NCBI GenBank assembly: GCA_963803805.1
Contig: CAWDOD010000011.1
Span: 288,001-352,000 of the forward strand
Length of the DNA: 64,000 nucleotides
DNA from: an uncultured cyanobacterium
GTDB lineage: Bacteria > Cyanobacteriota > Cyanobacteriia > Cyanobacteriales > CAWCAG01
Direction: 5' to 3'
Below the pieces are notes generated by a model. That model worked only from the letters and a program-made list of their open reading frames with translations. It was not told the origin of the DNA and ran no database searches. Made by a program: the position numbers and the translations under genes. This document shows positions 17,920 to 52,734 of the stretch, piece by piece. Position 1 is the stretch's first letter. Every line of letters starts with the position of its first letter.

Positions 17920-19061
17920 GTGGAGGTAATTTTTCAACTGCTATTCAGTAAATTCCGGCAATCGACTAAAGCTTCAGAGCAAAACTGTCGATCTGTTGCC
18001 GAACGTATTGCCAATGAAGTAGCGAGAATTTGTCAGCAAAGCTCTCGCATTCAAGCTTCTGGCGAAATAGAAAACTGGGCCAAAAATTAGCTAACCATCG
18101 CTTAGAACAGTGCCTGCATTACTATGGCTTAGGTTCTAATCGAGGCAGAATCGAATTACAGAGTACCTTGAGTGCCATTATCTACCGCTACATTTCTCCT
18201 CCAGGTGCGATCGCCAGCTATCAAGCGAGATTGACTTTAATTGAAGACTTTTTACAAGGTTTTTATGCAGAAGCTTTGAATGCTTTTAGGCGAGAGGCAG
18301 AACTTCAAGAACAATACTCTCCTCGTACTCTTTTGGAACTTGGGGAATATATGGCCTTTTGCGAACGCTATGGCAAAAGGCGTATTCCTTTACCAGGGAA
18401 ACGCTCTCAACAGTTAATTATCCTACGGGCCCAAACCTTTTCTCAACAACAACCTAGCGAAGCATCAGTGGATATTGATGCGGCTGGGGATGGAGGGAGT
18501 TTAGACTCTAATCGAGGTTGGAATGACCCCACAGTCCAGCAACTAAGGGAAGTCATGGTAGAACAAGAATCTACCCCTTTAGAGGCGAATTTGCGGGAAA
18601 AGATTATTGAGGAGTTAATTGCTTACCTAGAAGAAAAGCAACAAAACGAGTGTATAAACTACTTTGTTTTGCGCTTGCAAGACCTTAGTGCCAATGAAAT
18701 TGAGCAAATTTTAGGGCTAACTCCCAGAAAAAGGGATTACTTACAGCAGCGCTTTAAGTACCATCTTATTCGTTTTGCCCTTTCCCATCGCTGGGAACTA
18801 GTGCATCAATGGTTAGAAGCTGATTTAGAACGTAATTTGGGTTTAACCCCCCAAAAGTGGGAAATTCTCACCGAGAAACTAAGCCCTACTCAAACTGAGC
18901 TATTGCGACTTAAACAATTAGAAACCCCTACAGCAGAAATTGCCAAGGAACTATCCTTAACAGTAAATCAAGCTGAGAAACAGTGGTTCAAATTACTCGA
19001 ACTCGCTTGGGACATTCGTAATCGTTCAGTATCCGGATCGGACGCATCTCCAGATGAATAG
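17920..19061 (+). CDS. hetZ: HetZ-like protein, frameshifted in the A5 run at 18082-18086
   Basis: GTG 17920 frame gives VEVIFQLLFSKFRQSTKASEQNC..RIQASG; second frame continues LANHRLEQC..GRIELQSTLSAIIYRY..FKYHL.RF; one extra A joins them. Confidence 0.8.
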
Positions 19062-20199: not shown

Positions 20200-22530
20200 G
20201 TGAAAACTTTGCGACTACAACATCTACCTCTAGTTAGGAAAATCTGGCAGCGTCTGGAGACAATGCCTTTACCACCAACAGAGGAATCTATCCTGCTACG
20301 GATATTAGTCCAGGGATTGGTAGCTGTAGGCATTGTCGCTACAGATGTGGCTGCGGGTACTCAATTAAGCTTGTGGGCTATACCTTTAAGCTGTGTCGGT
20401 GCTATTTGGAGTTGGTATCGACGGCGTAAGCGCAATGTTATGGTGAAGTTTCTTCTTGCCATAGGTATGTTACTAGCTATGGCTAGTTTTTTTGGGAATT
20501 TATTTTCTAGTTTGAATGATACTCGCCTTGTCCTAGCTGAGTTATTAATTCAACTACAAGTTCTTCACAGTTTTGATTTACCTCGGCGTAAAGATTTAGG
20601 CTACTCCATGATTATTGGGTTAATCCTTTTGGGGGTAGCTGGTACGGTTTCGCAAACTTTAGCTTTTGCACCCCTGTTATTTCTGTTCTTAGTTTTTGCT
20701 CTACCTGTTTTAGTTTTAGATTATCGTTCCCGTTTGGGGTTAGTTGAAGAAAAAAGGAGGAGAAAAAACTCTAGTGAACAGGATTTAAGGGAAGGGGATA
20801 GAAAACTGTCTCTTTCTAGTCTTAAGTCTTCCCTTTTTGTTATTCTTTCTCCCCAACGTTGGCTTTTTTTGCTAGGAACTATTTTGGTTTTAGGGTTGAC
20901 TATTTTTCTTCTGATGCCTCGTTTTCCTGGTTATCAACTCCAAAGTTTTCCTGTTAGTGCGCCAATAGATTTAGATAACAAAAGTTTTGAGCAACAAAAT
21001 CAGGGTATTGTTAATCCTGGTTATGGCAACCAAGAAAATGGTGACGGAGAAGGTAGCGGTAGTGGCGAAACAGAAGCCCCAGGAGAGATAGATGATACCT
21101 TTTACTATGGCTTTAATAGTCAGATTAACCAAAATCTCCGGGGAGAAATGACTCCCAAGGTGGTTTTGCGGATACGCTCCCAAGCACCAGGTTTTTGGCG
21201 GGTAATGGCATTTGATCGCTACACTGGCAAAGGGTGGAAAGTTTCTCGTGAAGATAAGTTAATTCAAATTGAGCGCCCTAGCTGGTCTTATCAATTTTAT
21301 CTTTCTCCTCCCCGTACCACAGCACCAACTAAGCGAGTAATTCAAAGTTATACAACAGTTACTGAGTTACCTAATATTATTCCGGCTTTAACTTATCCTA
21401 AGCAACTTTATTTTCCTGCCAAACAAGTTGCTATAGATTTAGAAGGGAGTTTGCGATCGCCCCTTGGTTTAGTAGAAGGATTGACCTATACAGTAATTTC
21501 AGAAGTACCTATTCGCGATCGCAGTTTATTGAGGAAGGCTTCAGAGGAATATCCAGAGAAGATCGAAGAGTATTATTTACAAATTCCTCCAGAAATCCTA
21601 ACTAAGGTGAAGCAGCGAACAGAAGAACTTTTAGCTAAATCCCCTAATCCCCTAACTTCCAGTTACGAAAAAGCCCTTTATCTTGCCCAAGCTATCAAGC
21701 AAAGTTATGAAGTTAAAACTGATTTACCCTTTTTTGAGAAAGATGAGGATTTAGTAGAGGCTTTTCTATTTCGCCATCAAGGAGGCTACCCAGATCATTT
21801 TGCTACCGCCTATACTATGATGCTTCGTTCGGTAGGTATACCTGCCCGGTTAGAAGTCGGTTTCGCCACTGGACAGTTTAACCCTTTTACTGGACTTTAT
21901 GTGGTTAAAAATACAGATGCCCATGCTTTAACAGAAGTTTATTTTGGTGATTACGGTTGGTATGCTTTTGATCCTATTCCTGGCCATGAAATAGTCCCTC
22001 CTTCTATTGAAGAAGTGGAAACCTTCAGTGCATTACAACAATTTTGGCGTTTGATTGCTGGTTGGTTGCCTTCCCCTGTGACTAGCTTTTTGGGGGAAGT
22101 TTGGCAGCAAGTTATTGTGAGGATAATTCGCTCTATTGCTTGGTTGTGGAGATTTTTCTCTAGTACTTGGCTTGGCTTGTTTACAGGTATTATGGCCGCT
22201 ATTGGCTTTAGTTTTCTGACTTGGTTAGGTTGGAATCAACTGCAAGCTTGGGCCCGTCGTCGTTGGCTAGCTAAGTTAGCGCCTATGGAAAGATTGTATC
22301 AACAAATGCTCAAATTATCTGCTGAGCAAGGATATCCTAAAAACCCTGCCCAAACCCCTTTGGAATATGCCCAAAGTGTACGGGGAAATTTGCAAAGTGT
22401 TAGGGCTGATATCATTGAAGAGATTTGTCAAGGATATGTAGGCTGGCGTTATGGGGATAAGACACAAAATGTTTCCTATTTGCAAGGGCAGCTACAAGCA
22501 TTACGGCGTAGTCTCAGAAGAATCAATTAA
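20200..22530 (+). CDS. Membrane transglutaminase-like protein (TgpA type)
   Basis: N-terminal TMs, FWRVMAFDRY.G..W, GYPDHFAT, GIPARL..GF..G, DAHA..EVYF..YGW..FDP. Confidence 0.85.
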   Translation: MKTLRLQHLPLVRKIWQRLETMPLPPTEESILLRILVQGLVAVGIVATDVAAGTQLSLWAIPLSCVGAIWSWYRRRKRNVMVKFLLAIGMLLAMASFFGNLFSSLNDTRLVLAELLIQLQVLHSFDLPRRKDLGYSMIIGLILLGVAGTVSQTLAFAPLLFLFLVFALPVLVLDYRSRLGLVEEKRRRKNSSEQDLREGDRKLSLSSLKSSLFVILSPQRWLFLLGTILVLGLTIFLLMPRFPGYQLQSFPVSAPIDLDNKSFEQQNQGIVNPGYGNQENGDGEGSGSGETEAPGEIDDTFYYGFNSQINQNLRGEMTPKVVLRIRSQAPGFWRVMAFDRYTGKGWKVSREDKLIQIERPSWSYQFYLSPPRTTAPTKRVIQSYTTVTELPNIIPALTYPKQLYFPAKQVAIDLEGSLRSPLGLVEGLTYTVISEVPIRDRSLLRKASEEYPEKIEEYYLQIPPEILTKVKQRTEELLAKSPNPLTSSYEKALYLAQAIKQSYEVKTDLPFFEKDEDLVEAFLFRHQGGYPDHFATAYTMMLRSVGIPARLEVGFATGQFNPFTGLYVVKNTDAHALTEVYFGDYGWYAFDPIPGHEIVPPSIEEVETFSALQQFWRLIAGWLPSPVTSFLGEVWQQVIVRIIRSIAWLWRFFSSTWLGLFTGIMAAIGFSFLTWLGWNQLQAWARRRWLAKLAPMERLYQQMLKLSAEQGYPKNPAQTPLEYAQSVRGNLQSVRADIIEEICQGYVGWRYGDKTQNVSYLQGQLQALRRSLRRIN

Positions 22531-23453
22531 TCAGGTACATTGACAGCACCATTTTTCTGCAAATATTGTTTCTGTTCTTCTGTCAATCCTTTAGCATCAG
22601 TAAAGATTGCTTCTCTTACCTCAGCATCTGTTAAATCTACTTCAGCTAAAACACTATTTTCAAAGTTAGCATTCTGTAAATTAGCACTTCTGAAATTAAT
22701 TTGTGATAAAGTTGCTCTTTCTAATTTAGCATCAAATAAAGAGGCAGAGGTAAAGTCAATTTGTGTTAAAGTGCTGCCTTGTAACATGGCTTCTGATAAT
22801 TCTGCTTGTTGTAAAATTACCGCTCTCAAATTAGCTTCAGCTAAGTTAGCAGCAAAAAGATTTGCTTGAGTTAAATCAGCTTCAGCTAAGTAAGCATGAA
22901 TAAAGGTAGCCGCTTCTAAATTAGCTTCGCGCCAAATTGTTGCCAATAAATTTGCTCCCTCAAACCGAGCTTTTCTTAAGTTAGCATGGCTAAAATTAGC
23001 TTGGGGAAAGTTAGACATACTCAAATTTGCTTTGCTTAACTCAGCATTACTAAAGTTAGCGGCTTTTCCTTTTGCTTCACGAAAATCTGCTCTTTCTAAA
23101 ACCGCAGCCGTTGCCGCAATATTATCTAAAATAGCGCCGTAAAAGTTAGCAGATTTTGCTTGAATATGGTTCATAATAGCGCCACTAAAATCAGCATTGG
23201 TTAAAGTAGCTTCGTTAAAGTTAGCACCAGCTAAGGAAGCCTGACTAAAGTTAGCAAAAATCAAAGTAGCTTCAGAGAAATTAGTTTCTTGACAAGAGGT
23301 TTTAGTGAAGTTAGATCGACGCAAGTAAGCTTTACTAAAATCGCCTCGGTCTAGGTTTTTACCTTCAAGATCAACTTTACTTAGTTCTGCTTTAGCTAAG
23401 GATTCTCCTTTTTGGATTTTGGCAACTATTTCACTGGCAGTAAATAGAGTCAT
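22527..23453 (-). CDS. Pentapeptide repeat protein
   Basis: Continuous A(N/D)(L/F)xx repeats. Confidence 0.93.
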   Translation of the reverse strand: MTLFTASEIVAKIQKGESLAKAELSKVDLEGKNLDRGDFSKAYLRRSNFTKTSCQETNFSEATLIFANFSQASLAGANFNEATLTNADFSGAIMNHIQAKSANFYGAILDNIAATAAVLERADFREAKGKAANFSNAELSKANLSMSNFPQANFSHANLRKARFEGANLLATIWREANLEAATFIHAYLAEADLTQANLFAANLAEANLRAVILQQAELSEAMLQGSTLTQIDFTSASLFDAKLERATLSQINFRSANLQNANFENSVLAEVDLTDAEVREAIFTDAKGLTEEQKQYLQKNGAVNVPD

Positions 23454-23477: not shown

Positions 23478-24557
23478 TTATTTATTTAACTTATAGTAAT
23501 CTTGCAACCACTGAGTTAAGTCGCTATTAGTTTGAAAATTCCACATAGCTTCTCCTAAATCTTCTAATTCTTGAGCTTCTAAGGCTTCAATAGAAGTAAT
23601 AGCTTCTGAGGTTAATTCTCCAAAACGGCGCTCAATTTGCCGTAATAACAAGCTTCTTTCGCCTTCGATTTTTCCTTCTTCTAAACCTTGTTGCAATCCC
23701 TGTTGTAACCCTTCTTCTAAACCTTGTTGTAACCCTTCTTCTAATCCCTGTTGTAACCCTTCTTCTAATCCCTGTTGTAACCCTTCTTCTAATCCCTGTT
23801 GTAACCCTTCTTCTAATCCCTGTTGTAACCCTTCTTCTAAACCTTGTTTTTTAGCAAAAATCATTGCACCTTGACGATCAGCAATGAACATTTCCTGTTT
23901 ATGTAATTTCTCTAATTCTTCTACACTCAAGCTAGCTTGATTAGCAATGTTCAAGGCTTTTTCTATTTGTGGTATCTGTCCCATTTTTTCTGGTATTACT
24001 TCTAAGTTTTGCGCTTCTTTAATAAAGTAGATCCATTTATCCGTAACACTTTCTAAATCTTCTAGTTTTTTGTTAAACTTAGGCAATTCTACAAATACTA
24101 GCTTTAATTCCTCTTCCTGATAAGCAATTTTTTCTTCTTCTTCTTGAAAATGGAAACGAGTAATTACTTTCTGGCTTGAAGAAAATAAAGTAAAGTCAGT
24201 GATAGTTAAAGCAATTACTGGTGCAAGATCAGAATATCCCTGTCCAGATTTAAGTTGATTACCGTAGGTTTTGCAGAGGTTGTAAACTACTCGTTTTTTA
24301 AAAGCCTCTACGTTCCAGATTTGCATCTCGATGATGACGCTTGTGCCATCATTTAATACTGCTTTAACGTCAAGATAACTATCTTTTAAATCAACGATAT
24401 CACTAGGGTTATAGGGGTCAATAATTTTCAAATCTTCAATGACAGCATCACCGGAGTAAATGGTGGCATTGAGGAAGGAAATGAGAATATCTTTACTTTC
24501 ATCGGAACTAAATATTTTTTTGAAAGCAAAGTCAGTTTTAGGTGAGATGAATCTCAT
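23478..24557 (-). CDS. Rpn family PD-(D/E)XK nuclease / putative transposase with DUF4351-like tail
   Basis: FISPKTDFAFKKIF, LDVKA, IIEMQ, FVELPKF, DKWIYF. Confidence 0.88.
   Translation of the reverse strand: MRFISPKTDFAFKKIFSSDESKDILISFLNATIYSGDAVIEDLKIIDPYNPSDIVDLKDSYLDVKAVLNDGTSVIIEMQIWNVEAFKKRVVYNLCKTYGNQLKSGQGYSDLAPVIALTITDFTLFSSSQKVITRFHFQEEEEKIAYQEEELKLVFVELPKFNKKLEDLESVTDKWIYFIKEAQNLEVIPEKMGQIPQIEKALNIANQASLSVEELEKLHKQEMFIADRQGAMIFAKKQGLEEGLQQGLEEGLQQGLEEGLQQGLEEGLQQGLEEGLQQGLEEGLQQGLQQGLEEGKIEGERSLLLRQIERRFGELTSEAITSIEALEAQELEDLGEAMWNFQTNSDLTQWLQDYYKLNK
23673..23848. repeat. 24-bp coding tandem repeat (QQGLEEGL), about 7 units
   Basis: ccttcttctaa(a/t)cc(t/c)tgttgtaac repeated. 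Confidence 0.9.
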
Positions 24558-24809: not shown

Positions 24810-25259
24810 TTAAGTTGTTTTGACTAAGACAGAACCCTCTTCTTCTTTCACTTCATAGGTTGCTAAAGGTTCTTGGGCAGGGCCTTTCAGTACTTCTCCA
24901 TCGGGGGCAAACTGGGAACCATGACAAGGGCAAACTAAATTTTTAGCCTCAGCATTCCACTCTACAGTACAACCTTGATGGGTACACATTGGGCTAACAG
25001 CAGCTAGACTGTTATCTTCGTTGCGGACTACGATTAAGTCGTTTTTCTTTTGTAAAAGGTAGCCTGCTTCATCTAATTCAGTGGTTGTACCAGCGACAAT
25101 AAAGCCATCTTCGCGAGGGCCTTCAGCAGCAGGAGTTTCTTCCGGGGAGGTTTCCGTTTCTGCTTCTTCGGCTTCAGGACTACAAGCTGCGATCGCAACG
25201 GGTAAAGAACTAGCTAAAATACCAACACTAACCCAACCTAAAAATTTACGACGTTCCAT
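24810..25259 (-). CDS. Small Rieske [2Fe-2S] lipoprotein, PetC3-like
   Basis: Tat motif ERRKFL, lipobox IAAC, CTHQGC and CPCHGSQF. Confidence 0.88.
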   Translation of the reverse strand: MERRKFLGWVSVGILASSLPVAIAACSPEAEEAETETSPEETPAAEGPREDGFIVAGTTTELDEAGYLLQKKNDLIVVRNEDNSLAAVSPMCTHQGCTVEWNAEAKNLVCPCHGSQFAPDGEVLKGPAQEPLATYEVKEEEGSVLVKTT

Positions 25260-25285
25260 AAGTGTTTCTCCTCAATTTTAAGTTA

Positions 25286-27004
25286 TTAATTATCAACCTT
25301 CAACTTTAACTGTCCCATCATATCTGTTTCTGCTGGTTTTTTACGATTGAACCAACCCTTATGACGTACTGTTGCTGCCAAGACAAAGAGTAAATCTAAA
25401 CCCACTAAACCAGCTACCATTAACTCCGAACCCCCCGTACTGAAACCGTAGCTGTGCAAACCAGTACCCAGAAAAAAGTTTACTCCATACCAGGCCATTA
25501 ATACAGCATTGAAACATACTACACTAGCTACTGCCATACCAAAGTTAGTTAGCCAACCAATGAGACGGCCATGTAAGGGGACAATGTAGGAGATTAAGGC
25601 AATTAAGGCCCAGGTTTCTTTTGGGTCCCAACCCCAGAAACGTCCCCAGGAGAAATGCGCCCAGATGCCGCCGAGAATTACCCCTGCGGTGAGAAGTAGG
25701 ACTCCTACTTGTAAAACGCCATAATTCCATTTAGAGAGGTTTTTAATTTTTTCTGTAGCTTGGGGGGCGAAGAGATAGTAGCCCAGGATGATGTGACCTA
25801 AGCCTAAAGCGAGGGCAAAGCTGGCATAGCTTAGGGTGATAGTGGGGACGTGGATGCTTAACCAGAAGTTATCCCGCAAAACCGGAACTAAGGGTTTGAT
25901 GCTAGGATCAAGGACAGCAGGGAGACTGTCGGCTAAAACTAAGCAAACAACGGATAGGGGGGCTGCTGCCAGGAGGTAGTATTTGGCACGATAAATTAGT
26001 TCAAAAACTAAAGCGATCGCCGCTAAACCAAAACCGACCCAAATTACCGACTCGTACATATTGGTAACAGGAGGCCGGCCGGCAATTTGCATTCTTTCCC
26101 AAAAACCGTAGCTATGAATGGCAATACCAACTACAAAGATGCCTATTGTTCCCCAGTAGAAGTTGAATTTCTCTACCCCTACTACTAATAGCATGATTGC
26201 AAAGGCGATCGCATATAGTCGCCAAGCTTTGGCAAAGGGATGTAAGCCGTAGAAGTTAACTTCCCGTTGCAGGAGGGCGTGATTAGGATAAATTTCTGGA
26301 CTAAGGGCGCGGAGTTTATCTTGTAATTTGCCACCAAGTTCACCCAAAACTTGGTAATGTTCAGGGCTAGAGAGATAAACTTGTTTCAACATTTCATAGT
26401 CAGCAAGTACCGGGGCAACCTGTTGGGCTTGGTAATATTGGGTTGCTTGCTTCAAACCTACCCACTTTCCTTTAATATCGCTGGGGTGGGGTACTAAAGG
26501 TAATTTGTTTACCCCCACTGTGTCAACCAGCAAAGCCAATCTATCTTCAATGGTTAAAGCTTCCCTCTCATCCCTAGTTAAGTCGAGGTTGTCAGCTTCC
26601 TTTTGCCTTGCATCGAGGATAACGGAACCTAAACTGGAACTAATTAACTCTTGGAAAGTAAAATACTTACGTTCAGGATCTAGTCCTACTTTCTCTTTGA
26701 GGGGACGGTAGCTAAAGAGAATAAAGGGTTCTTGATTCCAATCTCGGTCATTAAACCACAAAGAAAGGTAGGTTTGCAGATAACCTAATGTTTCCCCATT
26801 TTTGGGGCGATAGTTGGCACGACCATGAATTTGCGCTACAGTTTCCTGGGCTACTGTGGCTAAAGGCTTTTTACGTCCATCTAGTTGCACTGCCATAGTT
26901 TCTAGGGATTCCCAAGAGGAGGCTTGAAACTGGCTAAAGGGAATCAGGATTAAGAAGATGCCTAAACAGAGTCCGATGATGAATTTGAGTGGTTTGTTAA
27001 TCAT
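25286..27004 (-). CDS. ccsA: System II cytochrome c synthase CcsA/ResC with large N-terminal soluble domain
   Basis: WGRFWGWDPKETW (WWD), PV.NMYES, WLSIHV, GLHSY; start at MINKP is my preference. Confidence 0.88.
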   Translation of the reverse strand: MINKPLKFIIGLCLGIFLILIPFSQFQASSWESLETMAVQLDGRKKPLATVAQETVAQIHGRANYRPKNGETLGYLQTYLSLWFNDRDWNQEPFILFSYRPLKEKVGLDPERKYFTFQELISSSLGSVILDARQKEADNLDLTRDEREALTIEDRLALLVDTVGVNKLPLVPHPSDIKGKWVGLKQATQYYQAQQVAPVLADYEMLKQVYLSSPEHYQVLGELGGKLQDKLRALSPEIYPNHALLQREVNFYGLHPFAKAWRLYAIAFAIMLLVVGVEKFNFYWGTIGIFVVGIAIHSYGFWERMQIAGRPPVTNMYESVIWVGFGLAAIALVFELIYRAKYYLLAAAPLSVVCLVLADSLPAVLDPSIKPLVPVLRDNFWLSIHVPTITLSYASFALALGLGHIILGYYLFAPQATEKIKNLSKWNYGVLQVGVLLLTAGVILGGIWAHFSWGRFWGWDPKETWALIALISYIVPLHGRLIGWLTNFGMAVASVVCFNAVLMAWYGVNFFLGTGLHSYGFSTGGSELMVAGLVGLDLLFVLAATVRHKGWFNRKKPAETDMMGQLKLKVDN

Positions 27005-27066
27005 ATTTATTGTAGGTTGCAGGTATTTGGAATTGGGGGAATAGCGTCTAGCAAAAGTAATAAGTT

Positions 27067-27128
27067 GTAGGGGCGATCCGTTTCCCAAATATTGTTGATA
27101 AATCAAGGTTTGAATTGGATCGCCCTTA
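27067..27128. repeat. REP-like inverted repeat
   Basis: GTAGGGGCGATCC ... GGATCGCCCTTA; GTAG-initiated palindrome. Confidence 0.55.
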
Positions 27129-27140
27129 ATCTCCAGTCCC

Positions 27141-28922
27141 TCAATTGACGGTTAGCAATGGCTTGGTTTGTGCTTCTGTTGGAGTTGGGTTTGGCTGTTC
27201 GGTTAGGGCAGGTTTGGGTTTTAGTTTTTTAACTAATACTGGGCCGTAGAACATTACGGCAATGCCTATAACTACTAAGGCTGAACCTATCCAAGTTAAA
27301 GCTGTTACCCAAGCAGGTTCTCGCTTTACCTGTAGGGTTGACTGGCGTAAATCTCCGGGATTCCAGGAGGCTTGGGCAATTTTCCAGCCTTGATACCAAG
27401 TGGGATGATTCATCCAGACTTTGCGTTGTTGAGTTAAGCCAGTTTGAGGATCTTGCAGGCGGATTTGACTTGTCCACATGGCTACAGATTCGCTGCCTTC
27501 ATTCCGTTCCACAATAAAGTCTTCAAGCTGAATATTAAAGGGAAGTTGCAAGACTTTCGGGCTAAAGGCTGCAAAAATATCCCCTGCTGTATCATTGATA
27601 GTGGTTGCTTCTCCCCAAGGCAACCAGGTTTGCGTTCCAGTTTCCGTTCCTACCAACAGGGCAGGAACCCCTTCAAAGTTAGGATTATCAACAGGTACAA
27701 CTTGACGCTTAAGCTGGGCTTGAGGCATAAATTCTTCTAAGGTGATTTGGAAATCTGCCCAACCGGGAGTGATAACTTGACCAACTTCTAAGGAACCAGA
27801 TTTGAAACCACGGGAAGATTGCGCACTGTAAAAAAGTTGCTTGTCTGGGGTGGTTATGACACGGAAATAGTCTTCTGGGGTGGGAGGTTGAACGGTGTAG
27901 CTGATTTTAATTCCTTGGATTGCTTCCCCGGAAACTAAGCTACGAATCGGTTCAAAGTTATTGCCAAAAACAAACCAACGTTCTGTTCCCGTTGCGGTAG
28001 TTAGTTCTAACTGTACAGCAGGGTTGTTGAAGTTTTGGGAAGCGGTGGCTGGTTGGTTGTTGCTATTTAATCTAAAGTCTGGCCAGAAGTCAACCACTTT
28101 AACTTTGAGGTTGTTAGCAAGTTTGCTTGTGTTGCCAATACTTGTTTTAACATCTAAATCTAATTCTTTATCCCCTGCAACTATTTGTAAGTCACCCCAG
28201 GGGCTAGAATCTTTATTTTGGGGTGTGTTTAAATACTTTTGTAGTTCTGCTTCACTAGCAACAGCAATAATCTCTAACTGGGCTGGGCCAATTGTCATCT
28301 GACTGTAACTAGCGGGGGCAACGGCTAAGGAACGTTCTACCGTTTGTCCCATGCGATCGCTAGTTAAACTCAATCTTACTCCAGGATTAACAACCGTTGC
28401 TCCTGGGATAAAGCTAGCGGTTTGCATGGTATTTTCACTATAACTAAGTAAGGAAAGACCTGCAAAGCTTTGAGGATAAACTTTACCGCTAGCTTTAACA
28501 AATACATCGGTTTGTTGTATTTGCCCTTGGGGATTCATTACTTCCAGTAATTCCCCTTCAACACGAATCTGATTATTGGGGCCACTGTCAGTCCGCAACA
28601 GAGTTAAACCTTCTAGTCCTAAATGAATTACGGCTGCTGAACCAGCGATGATAACAATTAAGCCTAAATGAGTTAAAGCAAAACCTACTTTGCGCGGTCC
28701 TCGCCAGGGATAGCGACTTAAAGCAGAAACTCCTAAGTTTATGGCTAAAAGAAACATCAAAGCCCCAAACCAAGGACTTTTATAAACGGCTTGTTGTACG
28801 GTAGCAGAACCAACTTCTGATTCATAAAATGTTGCACCAATCAAAATAGCAGTAATGGCACATAAGAGAGGAACTGCTAACTTAATAGAACCAAGAAAAC
28901 TAAAAGATTTTTTATTCATCAC
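27141..28922 (-). CDS. Cytochrome c biogenesis protein ResB/CcsB
   Basis: GS.KLAV, Y.SPWF, THLG in third TM, LPF.I.L.DF, MNHP..Y.GWK..Q, C-terminal TM. Confidence 0.88.
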   Translation of the reverse strand: MMNKKSFSFLGSIKLAVPLLCAITAILIGATFYESEVGSATVQQAVYKSPWFGALMFLLAINLGVSALSRYPWRGPRKVGFALTHLGLIVIIAGSAAVIHLGLEGLTLLRTDSGPNNQIRVEGELLEVMNPQGQIQQTDVFVKASGKVYPQSFAGLSLLSYSENTMQTASFIPGATVVNPGVRLSLTSDRMGQTVERSLAVAPASYSQMTIGPAQLEIIAVASEAELQKYLNTPQNKDSSPWGDLQIVAGDKELDLDVKTSIGNTSKLANNLKVKVVDFWPDFRLNSNNQPATASQNFNNPAVQLELTTATGTERWFVFGNNFEPIRSLVSGEAIQGIKISYTVQPPTPEDYFRVITTPDKQLFYSAQSSRGFKSGSLEVGQVITPGWADFQITLEEFMPQAQLKRQVVPVDNPNFEGVPALLVGTETGTQTWLPWGEATTINDTAGDIFAAFSPKVLQLPFNIQLEDFIVERNEGSESVAMWTSQIRLQDPQTGLTQQRKVWMNHPTWYQGWKIAQASWNPGDLRQSTLQVKREPAWVTALTWIGSALVVIGIAVMFYGPVLVKKLKPKPALTEQPNPTPTEAQTKPLLTVN

Positions 28923-28925
28923 TTA

Positions 28926-29465
28926 TTACCTATTACCTGCCGTTTTCCTATATCTAAAGTGAGTAACATTAGCAATTGTTTCCCGTAAAGATTGGCTAGA
29001 TTCACCATATAAATCCAACCATTCATAAAAAGTTAGTTCTCCCCCTAAATAGGTATCAGGATTTTCTGCACCTTGTAACATGATTTTACATATTAAAGTG
29101 TAAGCATCTAACCAATTTTGTTCTAATTCTTGTGTCCATTGTGAACCTAAATAAGTAGCGAAAGTTTCTAATAAGGCTTTACCAACTAAAGGATAATGTT
29201 CTGCTACTGTACCAACGGTAACGTGGTGCGCTCCTAAACTTTTTAAAGCTAAAGTTAGTTCTTCAAGGTTACGGAGATTTTCCACAATTAAACCTAAAGA
29301 AGCAACTAGTTTCTTCTCTTGGGCTTCAATACTAACATTTTTAAACATAGGTTCTAGTTCTGGATTGTTGCGAAAGAGATTTTCATAGAAGCTAGCAGAG
29401 AATTGTTGCATTTGAGGTTTAATTGCCTCAAAGGATTTTTCTAGAATTTGAGAATTTAAGGCCAT
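28926..29465 (-). CDS. Single-domain globin with C-terminal extension
   Basis: FY(B10), F(CD1), Q(E7), LGAHH(F8), HYPLVG. Confidence 0.88.
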   Translation of the reverse strand: MALNSQILEKSFEAIKPQMQQFSASFYENLFRNNPELEPMFKNVSIEAQEKKLVASLGLIVENLRNLEELTLALKSLGAHHVTVGTVAEHYPLVGKALLETFATYLGSQWTQELEQNWLDAYTLICKIMLQGAENPDTYLGGELTFYEWLDLYGESSQSLRETIANVTHFRYRKTAGNR

Positions 29466-29548
29466 TTTTAGTTATTAATTTATAAAAATGAAGATAGATT
29501 TTTAATAAGCTAAACAATTGAAACTATTAGCTAATCACCTATTACTTT

Positions 29549-30163
29549 TTACTGATAATAATAAGCCAGAAAAATATGAAATAACAACATCACCAGAAAA
29601 ACACTAACTAAAAGAATGTGAGTAGAAAGCCAAATTGCTCTTAGTTGGCGAATTAAAGTACCTTTAGGAACTCCCGGTAACTTTTTACCACTCTTGCTAA
29701 CAGGAACAGAAACCCAAGCAAAGTATTGGCGAGAAGATTCTAACACCCCAGTTTCGGCCACAACTCCCACTAAAGCAGAAAGAGTTACAGCAAAAAATAC
29801 CCATAAGAAAATAGCATTAAAATTGATTCCTGTCATACCAAAAGTGTGAATTAAAGTAACTCCTAAAAGAGCAACTCCTAAAAAAATATGTAGTCTACGC
29901 CATAACTGTATGGAACCAGGAACCTTTAACTTAACTACCCAACTTCTCCCTCTTTTTCTGGCTGTAAAAACCATTTCCAAAATGACAAAAACTAGGGCCG
30001 CATAACCCGTAATTTGTTTGTATAACTCTCCCTGTAAAACTTGCAAAAATTCAAAGGCTTGTTCCCGCAAAATTTCTACATAAATAGGACTCAAAGCGAA
30101 AGGTGCTAAAAGTGCTGCGGCAACTAAAGTGAGGATAATTAAGGTAATAAATTTAGGTTTCAT
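29549..30163 (-). CDS. Polytopic membrane protein, putative di-heme cytochrome b
   Basis: Only four His in the protein, arranged as two H-X13-H pairs on two TM helices. Confidence 0.65.
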   Translation of the reverse strand: MKPKFITLIILTLVAAALLAPFALSPIYVEILREQAFEFLQVLQGELYKQITGYAALVFVILEMVFTARKRGRSWVVKLKVPGSIQLWRRLHIFLGVALLGVTLIHTFGMTGINFNAIFLWVFFAVTLSALVGVVAETGVLESSRQYFAWVSVPVSKSGKKLPGVPKGTLIRQLRAIWLSTHILLVSVFLVMLLFHIFLAYYYQ

Positions 30164-30228
30164 TGGTTTGTAGATTAGCTATTAGTTTCTCTACAAGGTT
30201 AGGAAATCAATGCTTTTATAATTAAGAC

Positions 30229-30248
30229 AGGGGGCAAATTTGCCCCCT
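30229..30248. other. Perfect 20-bp palindrome inside the cluster
   Basis: AGGGGGCAAATTTGCCCCCT. Confidence 0.7.
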
Positions 30249-30345
30249 TTCCGGGTATCGGCGATCGCACTTTCGTCCTTGGCAGAGGATTATTTAATTA
30301 GCTGCAATAAGCCTACGGCAACGCTTTGCGAAGGCTGATTTTTGT

Positions 30346-31005
30346 TTAAGCATCTCCTAAAGGCAGGTTGATCATAATACCACCCATTACATCATCCATT
30401 TCAAAGGTTTTGTCAGGATAGCGCTCTTTATGAACCGGATGTTCGTTGTGACAGCTAACGCAAGCTTCTGCTACAGCTTTGTCAGGATAAAGGGCAGAGT
30501 AGTATTTTTGGCCAGCAATTTCTTGTTCTGCTTTGAAAGGTTCACCGGTTTCAACCACTTCATCCATGGCTTCTTTTTCAAAGTCGGACTTGGGTGCATG
30601 GTTGTCGTTGATATTCCAGGGAGAAATCAAACCATAGGTGAAATTCCCTTCTTCTGAAGCTATTTCTGCCCCTAAACGAAACATTTGCGCTGGTAAAGGT
30701 ATACCATCAGTTTGCTGCCAAGATTCTGTTGCTTCAGTGGTAACTACACCGTCAGCCTTTTCTTTACCCTCCAATGTCTTTAATCTATTCACAACGTGCT
30801 TTGTATAAGCAGTACGATCAGCTAATAGGACAGTGTGAATGTAGTCAACTACGGCTTCTGGGGCAATGCCACCAGCAGCCCCGGCAGTAGGCGTACCGCC
30901 ACCACCACTACAGGCAATAGCTGTGATACAAATACTTGCTGCTAAGGCAAATAGGGCCATGGTTTTGGCTTTCATTCTCGGTAGCCAAGAATTGGCTGTT
31001 AACAT
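30346..31005 (-). CDS. Monoheme c lipoprotein, DUF3365/Tll0287-like
   Basis: Lipobox AIAC, LPAQM, N..P..DFEK, CVSCH, DVMGG. Confidence 0.8.
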   Translation of the reverse strand: MLTANSWLPRMKAKTMALFALAASICITAIACSGGGGTPTAGAAGGIAPEAVVDYIHTVLLADRTAYTKHVVNRLKTLEGKEKADGVVTTEATESWQQTDGIPLPAQMFRLGAEIASEEGNFTYGLISPWNINDNHAPKSDFEKEAMDEVVETGEPFKAEQEIAGQKYYSALYPDKAVAEACVSCHNEHPVHKERYPDKTFEMDDVMGGIMINLPLGDA

Positions 31006-31062
31006 TTTGTGTTCTCCTTGTTGTAAATTGAAATAGTCAAATAAGTTTCAGCTTGTAAATTC

Positions 31063-31857
31063 TTACTTTGCTGAGGTTTCACTCGAACCTTGATCCCCCA
31101 AAGCGCGAACCATATCTAGGGTTTCTAATTCTTGATTCGGTGGTCGAGCAAAATTTTCTTCTACTAACTCATCGTCGAAGATGCTGTTGTAGGAATATTC
31201 CATACCGTGACAGTTCATACAAACCTCCTTAACTGCGCGATCACGAGGTAAAAGAGTATAGGTATTGTTGTGGTTGACATGGAAGGTTGTACCAAACTCC
31301 TGGCGCGGTAAATGGCAGGTGGCACAGGTGACTGACTCGGTACTAGGCCTTGCTAAATCACCTTCGGCAACGAATAATTTAGCGTGTTGAGAGTTTTTGT
31401 AGTTGAGGGAGTGAGTGTCATTGTGGCAAGTTAAACAAGAATCTACTGCTGCTGTGTAGGTATCAACAGAATGAACATTGTGACAAGTGTTGCAGTTCAT
31501 TTCCTTATCCAAGGCTGACTCCTTCATCGGTAAGTTAGCCATAGCTGGGGTTAAAGGTGAAAGTCCTTCCCCTAAACGAATGCCATGTTTGCCTAACAAA
31601 AAAGTTTCTACTTGGTTTTCATGGCAACTAGTGCAACTTTCATAGTTAGGTTGTGCCACAAATGCTTTGGTTTTGTCATCTTGGTGACAACTAGAACAGT
31701 TAACGTCTGCTAAAGCATGGGCGCTATCTGCCCAAAGTTCATTAATCTCCTTTAGTTCAGCCTGAGATACATTCTGCGCGGTAGCTGCAAAGGGTAGCAG
31801 CAACAAACTAACAACAAACAAGCAAACAACTAACCAAACTCTCTTCTGACTTTGCAT
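31063..31857 (-). CDS. Exported hexaheme cytochrome c
   Basis: Signal peptide ending ATA; CSSCH, CTSCH, CNTCH, CLTCH, CATCH, CMNCH. Confidence 0.9.
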   Translation of the reverse strand: MQSQKRVWLVVCLFVVSLLLLPFAATAQNVSQAELKEINELWADSAHALADVNCSSCHQDDKTKAFVAQPNYESCTSCHENQVETFLLGKHGIRLGEGLSPLTPAMANLPMKESALDKEMNCNTCHNVHSVDTYTAAVDSCLTCHNDTHSLNYKNSQHAKLFVAEGDLARPSTESVTCATCHLPRQEFGTTFHVNHNNTYTLLPRDRAVKEVCMNCHGMEYSYNSIFDDELVEENFARPPNQELETLDMVRALGDQGSSETSAK

Positions 31858-32501
31858 TACCCACCTCCCAAAAACTCTTGACTTAAATCCGGAGTGGGGG
31901 CTTTATCTAGCTTAGTTTCCACTTCTAATTTAGGTAATGCAGGTTTAGGTAACATTGCCGGCTGACCTAAATTATCCTTCAAGAAACCAGTAGAAATTGA
32001 GCGGTGATCATGAAAATTATGGCAACCTGCTGTCCAGCAACCATCGGGAGAAAAGCCGTCATGACTTTTCATATCCCCTTGAATAATGCCCTCATGACAA
32101 GCCATACAGAGGTCTGGTTTGAGGTTAACTCCTCGCCCAAACATATGCACGTGTTCTTCATGGCAAGCAGTACAAGTCAAGACATCTAACCTAGTTAACA
32201 GTTCAGCCCAACGGGGGTCACGAAATTTTTTAGCCCCATGAACATCCTCAGCCATTTCTGCTTCATGACAACGCATACAGGTTTCGTTGCTAACCGGTTG
32301 AAAACTTTCGTGGCAGGAACCACAAGAAGCCTCTACTAAGTAATGCCCATCAGAAGTTGTTCCCGGTAGGAAAACATTATGTTCATCTAAAGCAAAAGCA
32401 GCCGTTAACCAAGCTGCAACAATAACAGCGATACCGATAATGGCGATTTTGGATTGAAAGAACTTACCAGGCTTGAAAATCCTGGCCAGATTGCTAGCCA
32501 T
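31857..32501 (-). CDS. Membrane-anchored or exported tetra/pentaheme cytochrome c
   Basis: N-terminal hydrophobic helix; CGSCH, CMRCH, CTACH, CMACH plus CWTAGCH (CX4CH). Confidence 0.88.
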   Translation of the reverse strand: MASNLARIFKPGKFFQSKIAIIGIAVIVAAWLTAAFALDEHNVFLPGTTSDGHYLVEASCGSCHESFQPVSNETCMRCHEAEMAEDVHGAKKFRDPRWAELLTRLDVLTCTACHEEHVHMFGRGVNLKPDLCMACHEGIIQGDMKSHDGFSPDGCWTAGCHNFHDHRSISTGFLKDNLGQPAMLPKPALPKLEVETKLDKAPTPDLSQEFLGGG

Positions 32502-32510
32502 TTTTCTCCT

Positions 32511-33071
32511 TTAGGCAATCAGGAGTAACAAAATCGTAAGTAAGCCGCCACCACAAAATAAACCACCAGCTAAACCCCAATTAACTTTGGCTTCAGGGGT
32601 AGGAGGGAGGGTGTGAATATTAGCTGGGGTGGTGGGGGTTGATTTTAGCTGTATATCGGTCGAAGAATAATCTGCACCGGAAAGCATTAATTCTGTAATT
32701 GCCCCATAAGCATCTACCCAAGCTTGCTTAACATCTGGTGTCCAATCTTGTTGCAAATACTGCTCAAACGTTGTTAACAAAGCATCACCTACCAATGGGT
32801 AATGTTGTGGTAAAGCGCCATACTTAACGTGCTTTGCCCCTAATCCTTTAAGCGCACCACTGAGTGCATCAGGTTTCCGCAAGTTTTCTACTACTAAAAC
32901 TAAAGAGGCAAGCAACTTTTTCTTTTGCTCTGTCATATCGCTATTAGCAAACAGAGGCTTAGCTTCAGGATGAGCAGTAAAGAGATTGTTGTAAAAAGAG
33001 GCTACAAAATTATCAGCTTGAGGTTTGACTTTTTCAAAACTTTCTTCTAGTAATTCTACTTGCAAAGACAT
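32511..33071 (-). CDS. Single-domain globin with C-terminal membrane anchor
   Basis: FY(B10), F(CD1), Q(E7), LGAKH(F8), HYPLVG; Pro/Thr linker then hydrophobic tail. Confidence 0.88.
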   Translation of the reverse strand: MSLQVELLEESFEKVKPQADNFVASFYNNLFTAHPEAKPLFANSDMTEQKKKLLASLVLVVENLRKPDALSGALKGLGAKHVKYGALPQHYPLVGDALLTTFEQYLQQDWTPDVKQAWVDAYGAITELMLSGADYSSTDIQLKSTPTTPANIHTLPPTPEAKVNWGLAGGLFCGGGLLTILLLLIA

Positions 33072-33400: not shown

Positions 33401-33446
33401 AATATAAACTCGTCGAAAACACGGTTTTGTAAATCTCTATACAAAA
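33401..33446 (-). promoter_or_regulatory. NtcA-activated class II promoter of the heme cluster
   Basis: ttttGTAaatctctaTACaaaa (core 33429-33442), exactly 22 nt, then TATATT (33406-33401, minus strand). Confidence 0.75.
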
Positions 33447-33553
33447 AATATTTCTTCGATTTGAAAAAAGCATAATAAATATGCAAAAATCGCATATTTA
33501 GTTAACTAAAAACAGATTACTAGGATATTGCCACCTCTGAACTACCCTAATTG

Positions 33554-33602
33554 TGATAATTGATAATTGATAATTGATAATTGATAATTGATAATTGATA
33601 AT
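33554..33602. repeat. (TGATAAT)x7 perfect heptamer repeat
   Basis: Seven exact copies. Confidence 0.9.
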
Positions 33603-33640
33603 TGACACACTACTAGAATTGCTAGAGTAATTATTAGTAA

Positions 33641-51360: not shown

Positions 51361-52734
51361 CTAAGAAGCTACTGCAAATTGATGAGGATAATTTACTGCT
51401 AAAACAGGATTTAAAGAGCTTTGCTGTTGCAGGGGAATTTGTATAACAACTTGAGTTCCTTGCCCAGGCTGTGAATGGCAAGCCAGCTTACCACCATGTT
51501 TTTCTACAATAATAGAGTAGCTGATTGCCAAACCCATGCCAGTCCCTTTACCAATAGGTTTTGTTGTAAAAAAAGGATTAAATAACTTACTAATCAAATC
51601 TTGGTTGATTCCTACGCCATTATCAGAGATAGAAATTTCTAGCCAGTAAGAGTCAATTGCTTGGGTTTGTATCCTAATTTGCGGTTGCTCAAGAATACTG
51701 TCAATCAAACCAAACTTTTCTTCTATTGCATCAATAGCATTAGCCAGAATATTCATAAAAACTTGGTTCAATTGTCCCGGATAACACTCTACTAGTGGCA
51801 ATTTACCATAATCTTTAATTACTTCAATCTTGAAGCAGTTTTGCTGAGATTTAAGGCGACTTTTAAGAATCATTAAAGTATTGCTGATACCTTCATGAAT
51901 ATCCACATCTTTAATCTCTGCTTCATCCATATGAGAAAAATTCCTTAAGCTGAGGACAATTTCTCGAATACGCTCTGCCCCTACTTGCATTGACTTAATA
52001 GTTTTTGGTAAATCTTCAATAGCAAAATCCAAATCGAGTTCGAGCATTTTTTTGGCTAGTATTGGGCTAGGCTGATTATGTTCATCTTGATACAGCTTGA
52101 GAACTTCTAATAAACTTTGAGTATATTCTTGAGTGTGAACTAGATTACCAAAAATAAAATTCATTGGATTGTTGATTTCATGAGCAACCCCTGCAACCAA
52201 TTGCCCTAAGCTAGACATTTTTTCACTTTGTATTAAGTGAGTTTGCGCCCTTTTTAACTCTTGTAGGGTTTGATCCAATTCTGCGGTGCGTTCAGAAACT
52301 CTTTTTTCTAATACCTGGTTTTGTTCTTCGACTTTGTTGGTGAGGTGATGAACTTTAATATGAAGCTTAACCCGTGCTAGAACCTCTTCTTGTTCAAAAG
52401 GTTTAGTGATATAATCTACTGCTCCCGAATTAAGCCCTTTAACTTTATTATCAGTATCACAAAGAGCTGTCATGAAAACGATGGGAATATTCTGGGTAGC
52501 AGGATTGCTTTTGATCTGACGACAGGTTTCAAAGCCATCTATACCTGGCATCATTACGTCTAAAAGGATTAAATCTGGCAAAGCAAATTTTACTCTTTCG
52601 AGGGCAATATCCCCAGATTTTGCAATCCAAACTTCAAACCCTGCTATATCTAAAAAGTCTGAAAGCACTCCTAAGTTAGCCGGGTTATCATCAACAATCA
52701 AGATAATACCTTGATGCTGCGATCTAGTACTCAT
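51361..52734 (-). CDS. Receiver-histidine kinase hybrid (REC-HisKA-HATPase)
   Basis: LIVDD, LLDVMMP; AGVAHEINNP; NAIDA, DNG.G, G.GMGL. Confidence 0.93.
   Translation of the reverse strand: MSTRSQHQGIILIVDDNPANLGVLSDFLDIAGFEVWIAKSGDIALERVKFALPDLILLDVMMPGIDGFETCRQIKSNPATQNIPIVFMTALCDTDNKVKGLNSGAVDYITKPFEQEEVLARVKLHIKVHHLTNKVEEQNQVLEKRVSERTAELDQTLQELKRAQTHLIQSEKMSSLGQLVAGVAHEINNPMNFIFGNLVHTQEYTQSLLEVLKLYQDEHNQPSPILAKKMLELDLDFAIEDLPKTIKSMQVGAERIREIVLSLRNFSHMDEAEIKDVDIHEGISNTLMILKSRLKSQQNCFKIEVIKDYGKLPLVECYPGQLNQVFMNILANAIDAIEEKFGLIDSILEQPQIRIQTQAIDSYWLEISISDNGVGINQDLISKLFNPFFTTKPIGKGTGMGLAISYSIIVEKHGGKLACHSQPGQGTQVVIQIPLQQQSSLNPVLAVNYPHQFAVAS

Follow-up and report, generated by a model that had tools for sequence, protein, structure and literature searches.

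Why should a cyanobacterium encode two haemoglobins, up to twelve sites for c-type haem, a membrane protein with paired histidines and a Rieske protein in one tight row of genes, when cyanobacterial cytochromes c are mostly monohaem? The question is raised by nine genes, g1 to g9, at positions 24810–33071 of a 64,000-nucleotide stretch of contig CAWDOD010000011.1 from an uncultured cyanobacterium (assembly GCA_963803805.1); this whole stretch is called the window throughout. An earlier note on the same DNA had seen in these genes exported multihaem proteins linked through a membrane cytochrome b to cytoplasmic globins under nitrogen control. As set out below, the core of the cluster was found to be conserved among cyanobacteria and to have relatives in other phyla. 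We tentatively propose that the nine genes form one NtcA-controlled haem-protein module that would move single electrons across the membrane and serve the handling of nitric oxide (NO) by globins in nitrate assimilation, a reading which we regard as possible rather than probable.

All nine open reading frames (ORFs) were confirmed, and all lie on the minus strand. The intergenic gaps from g1 to g9 are 9, −1 (a TAATG overlap), 57, 182, 83, 3, 34 or 136, and 26 nucleotides. The seventh gap, between g7 and g8, measures 34 nucleotides with the first TTG start of g8 and 136 nucleotides with the ATG at 27004; the ATG is favoured because homologues span only about 0.9 of the longer ORF, and it is the start behind the 136 bp in the earlier gap list, which matches ours. 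The Pfam and NCBIfam families recognised are Globin (twice), Cytochrom_c3_2 (twice), Tll0287-like, ResB, Cytochrom_C_asm and Rieske. Haem-c motifs total 12, with four CxxCH and one CxxxxCH (CWTAGCH) in g2, six CxxCH in g3 and one CxxCH in g4, and no CxxCK was found among the cluster proteins by a motif scan. The description in the earlier note of nine co-directional, closely spaced genes with up to 12 haem-c sites (5+6+1) therefore stands.

The cluster was compared with a cyanobacterial set of loci, obtained by scanning one genome per species, in which 98 relatives gave 80 loci that were kept; the named hosts are cyanobacterial and the others are metagenome-assembled genomes. Gene presence was scored by tblastn with the nine window proteins, and many of the misses fall at contig ends. 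Both g2 and g3 are present in all 80 loci, g4 and a globin in 79 each, and g5 in 75. Globin, g2, g3, g4 and g5 follow one another colinearly in 71 of the 80 loci, and g2-g3-g4-g5 do so in 75. ResB or CcsA occurs in 52 of the loci and the Rieske gene in 34, mostly upstream and divergent (CcsA lies upstream on the opposite strand in 23 of 44 cases), and the full colinear layout of nine genes seen in the window was found in none of the 80. The neighbourhood survey thus bears out the co-conservation of the core, with related loci in other phyla, whereas the unit of nine genes that had been supposed holds in part: its core is highly conserved, but the Rieske and ResB/CcsA genes are frequent companions rather than constant ones. 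Chance adjacency of the nine genes was rejected because of this conservation across the 80 loci. Other genes recur nearby: one for an exported thioredoxin follows g5 directly in 53 loci, one for a pentapeptide-repeat protein occurs in 38, and one for a ChaN-like haem-binding protein in 12. The window cluster is without this thioredoxin, whose best homologue (60% identical) is encoded elsewhere on the contig, at a distance of about 165 kb (C11:485716-486141). The module is sparse in Cyanobacteria, a g3 homologue (E ≤ 1e-20) being found in 3 of 400 other sampled genomes. Carriers among the 80 loci include Acaryochloris marina MBIC11017, which is culturable, as well as Moorena, Symploca, Hyella, Spirulina and Prochloron; further culturable hosts in the search tables are Synechococcus sp. 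PCC 7335, Pleurocapsa sp. PCC 7319 and Thalassoporum mexicanum PCC 7367.

What, then, do the two multihaem genes encode? The g2 product (31857–32501) is a pentahaem cytochrome c with an N-terminal helix that would anchor it in the membrane, and g3 (31063–31857), whose start overlaps the g2 stop, encodes a hexahaem cytochrome c with a signal-like N-terminus, predicted to be secreted. A search with g3 returned 541 relatives at E ≤ 0.001, and all the named ones among the best 120 are cyanobacterial. Among longer proteins, 35 homologues of 463–569 amino acids were found; the named ones belong to Planctomycetota and Gammaproteobacteria, with Aliikangiella maris and Roseiconus nitratireducens among the culturable hosts of this fused form. 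In one fused protein (P0250), residues 6–222 align to g2 (E 1e-34) and residues 222–448 to g3 (E 4e-60). Judged from these alignments, g2 and g3 are the N-terminal and C-terminal halves of a single 11-haem protein, which other phyla encode as one fused chain.

In the cyanobacterial alignments, of 79 and 81 sequences, the 5+6 motif histidines are conserved together with 6+6 other histidines, and 11 of the non-motif histidines, one per haem, are common to these alignments and to the invariant columns of 16 fused proteins. Because 11 conserved non-motif histidines are available for 11 haems and there is no CxxCK, the 11-haem cytochrome reads as a wire for electrons in which no haem is obviously catalytic. 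The place given earlier to the multihaem proteins in an exported electron relay is thereby kept, with the correction that they would form a pure wire made of two halves of one protein. A weak likeness was detected between g3 and HAO-like 6h5l (E 2e-4), between g3 and octahaem nitrite reductase 3sxq (E 9e-4), and between g2 and HAO 4fas (E 0.065); the fold model of the fused 11-haem protein, with a mean predicted local distance difference test (pLDDT) value of 52.9, was too poor for a structure search. The pair resembles NrfH/NrfA, octahaem nitrite reductase and HAO/epsilon-Hao in this weak likeness, in joining an anchored small protein to a soluble multihaem one, and in its nitrogen link. In contrast to those systems, it has 11 haems and a conserved distal histidine throughout, and no open site is evident: the open or special distal haem position (CxxCK or a missing distal histidine) of NrfA, octahaem nitrite reductase and HAO was not found in it. 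Nor does the pair belong to the NapC/NirT/NrfH family, since g2, although it has the N-terminal helix, carries five sites where that family has four CxxCH and does not match TIGR03153, and g3 scores 20 bits on the NrfH model (cut-off 134), which has no match on g2.

A non-cyanobacterial set of 80 loci was obtained by scanning metagenome contigs with the fused 11-haem cytochrome. The usual gene order there is g5-like, 11-haem cytochrome, Cache-haem protein, globin, with the Cache-haem gene in 54 of 57 loci and the globin in 32 of the 45 loci that have at least 2.5 kb of downstream sequence. A module confined to cyanobacteria is therefore not borne out, as it extends to other phyla. In three of these loci the Cache-haem gene and the globin are separated by the gene of a monohaem cytochrome c from the Cytochrome_CBB3 family (L093:12148-12492, L099:11954-12406 and L120:12025-12441), and this cytochrome was found by tblastn in 18 of the 80 loci. 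This protein may elsewhere take the role of the cyanobacterial Rieske protein.

How electrons could pass the membrane depends on g5 (29549–30163), a five-helix membrane protein of 204 amino acids with no Pfam or NCBIfam match, any cytochrome b family included. Its four histidines form two HX13H pairs, H92/H106 and H182/H196, each on one predicted helix, and none of the four varies among 75 cyanobacterial sequences or in any of the 14 fused forms described below, which confirms the four-histidine membrane protein of the earlier note. Four histidines on two helices spaced for two haems are also the mark of b561/CybB-like proteins. Loops rich in Lys and Arg (residues 69–89 and 143–175) alternate with neutral ones, as read from the sequence, an arrangement that fits an N-in, five-helix topology by the positive-inside rule with one histidine pair near each face. 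Taken together, g5 is a probable trans-membrane di-haem b protein. Its model has a pLDDT of 67.7, and a Foldseek search of the model against the PDB gave nothing at E ≤ 0.001; weak rows were obtained for the cytochrome b subunits of hydrogenase-1 and formate dehydrogenase-N. With VIA-align, the best natural match is E. coli superoxide oxidase CybB (5oc0_A; 137 residues aligned, root-mean-square deviation 3.7) at a Z of 9.8, a value within chance range, as a Z below about 13 may show only a common arrangement for helical bundles.

The relatives of g5 are more informative. A profile search of 1.84 billion representatives gave 309 of them, many with 630–700 amino acids and the match at the C-terminus, and among the ESM Atlas clusters for g5 the commonest phylum is cyanobacteria for two and Nitrospirota for one. 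In the loci of other phyla, the gene 5′ of the fused cytochrome was scanned with Pfam in 14 cases; all 14 proteins (646–683 amino acids) carry Pyr_redox_2 and a C-terminal g5-like domain, and at E ≤ 1e-8 Fer2_BFD was found in 11 and Rubredoxin_C in nine. The four histidines and four basic residues are invariant in the 14 flavo-cytochrome b fusions, and the six fusions inspected have a CxC...CxxC motif and a Rossmann-type N-terminus without signal. We take the domain order of this reductase part to resemble the N-terminal part of NirB. A tblastn match to the N-terminal flavoprotein part was found in 45 of the 80 non-cyanobacterial loci; the same search found the domain in none of the 80 cyanobacterial loci, and it is absent from the window. 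The fusion with a flavin adenine dinucleotide (FAD)/[2Fe-2S] reductase implies that, in those organisms, the b-haem domain is partnered by a redox protein of the cytoplasm, and it provides the strongest evidence that the g5-like domain would conduct electrons across the membrane. Flavin-to-di-haem-b exporters are known from the NOX and ferric-reductase type and from the logic of Fre-MsrQ. The fused relatives of g5 share with these a cytoplasmic flavoprotein, two predicted b haems placed on HX13H pairs and an extracytoplasmic acceptor. In contrast, g5 has no Pfam match, the fusions have an extra [2Fe-2S] domain, the acceptor has 11 haems, and the cyanobacterial form is without a flavoprotein.

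On the cytoplasmic side, g1 (32511–33071) and g6 (28926–29465) encode single-domain globins of the flavohaemoglobin (FHb)/Vgb class. Both match Globin PF00042, with 69 bits for g1 and 59 bits for g6; their best NCBIfam model is NO-inducible flavohaemoprotein (NF009805), on which they score 78 and 70 bits against a cut-off of 432, and the best solved relatives are 3s1i/3ubc (E 1e-23), 3wfw, Vitreoscilla haemoglobin 1vhb and flavohaemoglobins. The class assigned to the two globins in the earlier note is thus borne out. Residues Y27, Q49 and H81, which we take to be helix positions B10, E7 and F8, are invariant in 12 tail-anchored globins, and g1 and g6 share with Hmp and Vitreoscilla haemoglobin the invariant Tyr, Gln and His at aligned distal and proximal sites. 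Unlike flavohaemoglobins, g1 (186 amino acids) and g6 (179 amino acids) lack a fused FAD/NAD(P)H reductase domain. The g1 product has a Pro/Thr-rich linker and a hydrophobic C-tail (residues 165–186), and is read as cytoplasmic and tail-anchored because it has a terminal hydrophobic helix and no signal peptide; g6 has no tail and carries a conserved C-terminal extension. Across the 80 cyanobacterial loci, 56 of the 71 globin hits adjoining g2 lie in ORFs with a hydrophobic C-tail, and the globin ORF beside g2 usually contains 2–5 fused globin domains (322–784 amino acids). The window has instead a single-domain tethered globin and the untethered g6, a type found in 14 of the 80 loci. One complex prediction of a tail-anchored globin with g5 scored 0.00 against a mark of 0.32. 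Outside the window, the same genome encodes an untethered two-domain globin of 297 amino acids (C3:486073-486966), 42–48% identical to g1 and g6, which adjoins a large sensor-protein gene and a pentapeptide-repeat gene and has no cytochrome beside it.

The lipoprotein encoded by g4 (30346–31005) matches PF11845 with 70.9 bits (cut-off 24.1). It has 219 amino acids, a lipoprotein signal and no signalling domain, which places it in the stand-alone Tll0287/sCache_haem class; no match to PDB sequences was found at E ≤ 0.01. Its single CxxCH (residues 182–186) is conserved as C182/C185/H186 in 76 sequences, and since its cysteines are confined to the signal/lipobox region and the haem motif, the mature protein has none available as an axial ligand. 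In the accessible part of a bioRxiv report (10.64898/2026.02.01.703092), a characterised stand-alone Cache-haem protein has His/OH- ligation with an exchangeable distal ligand and a potential of about +123 mV, and binds NO and O2 weakly; that part reports no gene-neighbourhood pattern for the class and calls its function open. Like the class as described there, g4 is exported and has a conserved CxxCH; in contrast to a class without a neighbourhood pattern, g4 is locked in the module.

Maturation of so many c haems could be served by g7 (27141–28922) and g8 (25286–27106), a ResB/CcsB-like subunit and a long CcsA-like subunit of a System II cytochrome c synthase. Both subunit families are represented, by PF05140 in g7 (59.8 bits, cut-off 24.6) and PF01578 in g8 (104.9 bits, cut-off 29.9). 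The score on TIGR03144, 153.6 bits, is under the cut-off of 187.6, so the pair is divergent, and g8 has an extra region of about 230 amino acids between its first and second hydrophobic segments. As this genome also has a canonical ResB on its contig C2 and another CcsA on C3, the cluster pair is an extra copy, and the view of it as a private pair holds. Dedicated System II synthases are encoded beside their substrates elsewhere, as with Wolinella NrfI/CcsA1. The likeness to that case lies in an extra ResB/CcsA pair beside unusual multihaem substrates, one with a CX4CH site; the difference is that ResB and CcsA are separate genes here and that CcsA has the additional 230 or so residues. Downstream of them, g9 (24810–25259) encodes a small Rieske [2Fe-2S] protein (Rieske domain 58 bits; boxes CTHQGC and CPCHGS) with an RRKFL twin-arginine leader and the lipobox AIAAC, in agreement with the lipoprotein recognised before. 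The Rieske protein that accompanies the module is PetC3-like. It is not part of a bc1 or b6f type of complex by the evidence at hand, as g9 reaches 71 bits on the PetC models against cut-offs of 250 and 154 and g5 matches no cytochrome b model.

Is the module tied to nitrogen? An NtcA-type box, GTATAGAGATTTAC (GTAN8TAC; 33429–33442, minus strand), starts 371 nucleotides upstream of the g1 ATG, and a -10-like hexamer, TATATT (TAN3T; 33401–33406, minus strand), lies 22 nucleotides downstream of the box. With 14 GTAN8TAC sites in the window against 10.6 expected, a single site is weak when taken alone. Comparison among loci changes this picture: 48 of 61 orthologous promoter regions contain the motif, whereas among the 502 other intergenic regions of these loci it is found in 36, counts that come from related and hence not independent genomes, with box positions and sequences that differ between lineages. 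By density, 65 sites fall in the 61 regions that precede the first globin gene, which span 34.9 kb (1.86 per kb), and 41 in 151 kb of other intergenic DNA (0.27 per kb), a difference of about sevenfold. A box followed after 20–24 nucleotides by TAN3T is present in 31 of the 61 promoter regions, against six occurrences in the 151 kb, both strands counted. The canonical NtcA promoter claimed in the earlier note was thus confirmed as a box, 22 nucleotides and TAN3T, and the comparative enrichment makes a strong case out of a weak lone site. The genome itself encodes NtcA, with a score of 386 bits that exceeds the cut-off. The link to nitrogen would accordingly be a regulatory one in cyanobacteria, by predicted NtcA control.

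In other phyla, the link takes the form of neighbours: 16 of 33 loci of at least 12 kb have genes for NrtA/B-like proteins, ANTAR, cyanate lyase, NIR_SIR or a Mo-enzyme (molybdopterin oxidoreductase) beside the module. The NtcA boxes in cyanobacteria and the nitrate-assimilation neighbours elsewhere are two independent lines that point in the same direction. The earlier note had suggested checking for co-occurrence with nar, nir or nitric oxide synthase genes; neighbours of the nitrate-assimilation type are seen in other phyla, but not in cyanobacteria, where non-cyanobacterial queries found such genes in none of 61 loci of at least 12 kb. The window has none either. NrtA-like genes do occur elsewhere in this genome, as do two genes for NIR_SIR. 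The genome has no PF02898 match, and a link to nitric oxide synthase was therefore rejected for it; a link to nitrogenase was rejected too, since the best nifH hit in this 97% complete genome scores 217 bits against a cut-off of 394.

These results suggest how the parts might work together. Outside the membrane, in the periplasm or the thylakoid lumen, would lie the bis-His 11-haem wire, with g2 anchored and g3 soluble, the monohaem c protein g4, and g9, exported by the twin-arginine route. In the membrane, g5 would hold two b haems, one near each face, and the FHb-type globins would be found on the cytoplasmic side, g1 being tethered by its C-terminal helix. The g7/g8 synthase would be dedicated to attaching the c haems. 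The exported haem/Rieske chain would connect to the tethered globins and re-reduce ferric globin, and the globins would dioxygenate NO arising in nitrate/nitrite assimilation. A relay feeding the globins was chosen because the globins are the sole cytoplasmic redox proteins of the cyanobacterial module; the contact between globin and g5, the direction of flow and NO as the substrate are what we infer. The earlier scheme of exported multihaem proteins, a membrane cytochrome b and cytoplasmic globins under nitrogen control has thus gained conservation, the histidine pairs, the reductase fusion, the globin tail, the NtcA boxes and the neighbours in its favour, with these three links still drawn by inference. 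By analogy, NO handling in nitrate/nitrite assimilation appears to be the best-supported function, its precedent being Bjgb-Flp of Bradyrhizobium, in which, according to the accessible part of PMC4724949, a single-domain haemoglobin and a reductase encoded in a nitrate-assimilation operon detoxify NO.

Several points weigh against this proposal. A globin needs only a cytoplasmic reductase, which leaves the 12 exported c haems and the passage of the membrane unexplained. Inward flow would oppose the membrane potential, and the pyridine-nucleotide flavoprotein/[2Fe-2S] fusion in other phyla would argue for outward flow. A tblastn search of this genome with the L100 protein gave generic hits of 24–30% identity and no orthologue of the flavoprotein domain, and nitrate-assimilation-type genes are lacking from the window and the 61 cyanobacterial loci. 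The case for haem b in g5 would draw on histidine spacing and a middling fold match. As for the tether, 15 of the 71 globin hits beside g2 are in ORFs without a tail, and the globin ORFs listed from other phyla have 137–141 amino acids, short enough to be read as soluble proteins, and in some of those loci no globin was found. A bolder version of the proposal is a trans-membrane wire that ends in haemoglobin: electrons drawn on the outer side from the photosynthetic or respiratory chain would travel inward through the Rieske protein, the 12 c haems and the two b haems to membrane-tethered poly-globins acting as an NO dioxygenase (or O2 reductase) free of NAD(P)H, and with the flavoprotein-fused form this would make a new, widespread class of conduit in nitrogen assimilation. 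We consider this version rather unlikely.

The points on direction lead to the main alternative, in which electrons leave through g5 and the 11-haem wire to a periplasmic end, either g4 or a haem with a labile histidine, that reduces or scavenges NO, nitrite or hydroxylamine, while the globins are a parallel, co-regulated scavenger without a wire. The g5-like domain fused to a cytoplasmic flavoprotein has just the layout of an electron exporter, and the likeness of g3 to 6h5l and 3sxq, the nitrate-assimilation neighbours in other phyla and the exchangeable distal ligand and potential published for a stand-alone Cache-haem protein agree with such an outward reductase. However, all 11 haems of the wire have a conserved second histidine, the characterised Cache-haem protein binds NO only weakly, the absence of the flavoprotein from the cyanobacterial loci and genome searched leaves no cytoplasmic donor there, and neither the tether nor the multiplication of globin domains is explained, so that outward reduction also seems doubtful. 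If g5 were instead a di-haem b anchor that oxidises quinol or reduces quinone, the Rieske protein and c haems would form a periplasmic branch for disposal or uptake of electrons and the nitrogen link would be merely regulatory. The CybB match, the weak Foldseek rows to hydrogenase-1 and formate dehydrogenase-N and the PetC3-like Rieske protein in 34 loci can be counted for this, as can the carrier taxa, which we take to be largely mat-forming marine cyanobacteria. Such a Z value may mean only a common helical arrangement, though, g5 matches no cytochrome b family in Pfam, through the fusion the b haems would have a protein and not a quinone as their partner, and the globin seen in 79 of 80 loci would go unexplained; we hold the quinone-coupled branch to be improbable. 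Least credible of all is the management of oxygen, with tethered globins binding or reducing O2 by relay electrons and so shielding nitrogen metabolism that is sensitive to oxygen, nitrogenase for instance, or acting against oxidative stress. FHb-class globins do bind O2 tightly and NtcA also controls the nitrogen fixation genes of diazotrophs, but no nifH passes its cut-off in this genome, and the neighbours in other phyla are genes for nitrate, nitrite and cyanate assimilation, not nif genes.

Returning to NO handling by globins fed through a membrane relay, the closest known counterpart is Bjgb-Flp. As far as the consulted part of the literature on it goes, it too is a single-domain haemoglobin of the FHb class tied to nitrate assimilation and in need of an electron supply. 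The non-cyanobacterial module comes nearest to it, lying beside nitrate-assimilation genes and having a pyridine-nucleotide flavoprotein, but a different one that is fused to a membrane domain. The cyanobacterial module differs further, having no flavoprotein in the window or the 80 loci and lying outside any nas operon at the 61 loci, with a globin that is tail-anchored and often has 2–5 domains. Bjgb-Flp is not known to have a membrane b-type cytochrome, a multihaem cytochrome c or a Cache-haem protein. A full-text literature search, with subscription journals and preprint supplements outside its coverage, found the module described nowhere, consistent with the earlier note, which knew of no characterised cyanobacterial pathway with this make-up. 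The 'uet' undecahaem cluster of Tenderiales was rejected as a counterpart, being a different, extracellular system in the accessible part of the report (bioRxiv 10.1101/2022.05.06.490989), and the consulted parts of PMC7344198, PMC7005843, PMC9230427 and PMC8940962 do not treat the module. The assembly as a whole is thus undescribed in the literature searched, and its parts are members of known globin, sCache_haem, Rieske and System II synthase families.

If the proposal is true, bacteria of several phyla link haemoglobins of the cytoplasm, and a flavoprotein, with an extended chain of periplasmic haems in nitrogen assimilation, and stand-alone Cache-haem proteins acquire a physiological setting. 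It would likewise give multihaem cytochromes a role in cyanobacteria and small PetC3-like Rieske proteins a candidate one, and mat-forming marine cyanobacteria would have a testable route for handling NO. With both fused and split forms and culturable hosts at hand, the module is directly testable.

Some further features of the window deserve mention. In the 182-nucleotide gap between g4 and g5, a consensus scan picked out a G+C-rich hairpin of eight pairs, six of them G-C (30229–30248, minus strand), which could act as a partial terminator or mark where the transcript is processed; the cluster perhaps gives two transcripts. Directly 5′ of the NtcA-type promoter, at 33553-33610, lie about seven tandem heptamers CAATTAT, with promoter-like matches inside them on the plus strand. 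At the other end, a 308-residue pentapeptide-repeat protein (22527–23453, minus strand) belongs to the family that recurs beside the module; here it is separated from g9 by an ORF (23478-24557) that scores 170 bits as an Rpn-family recombination-promoting nuclease/putative transposase and contains a QQGLEEGL repeat, and which may be an insertion between the Rieske gene and the pentapeptide-repeat gene. The remaining genes of the window are housekeeping genes, apart from a few that stand out. A HetZ homologue (18030-19061) scores 552 bits against a cut-off of 550 in this genome without a nifH over its cut-off. Two adjacent, similar hybrid histidine kinases of 1335 and 1481 amino acids with several PAS domains are encoded at 52927-56934 and 57093-61538, and a response-regulator/kinase gene that follows the pair occupies 51361-52734.

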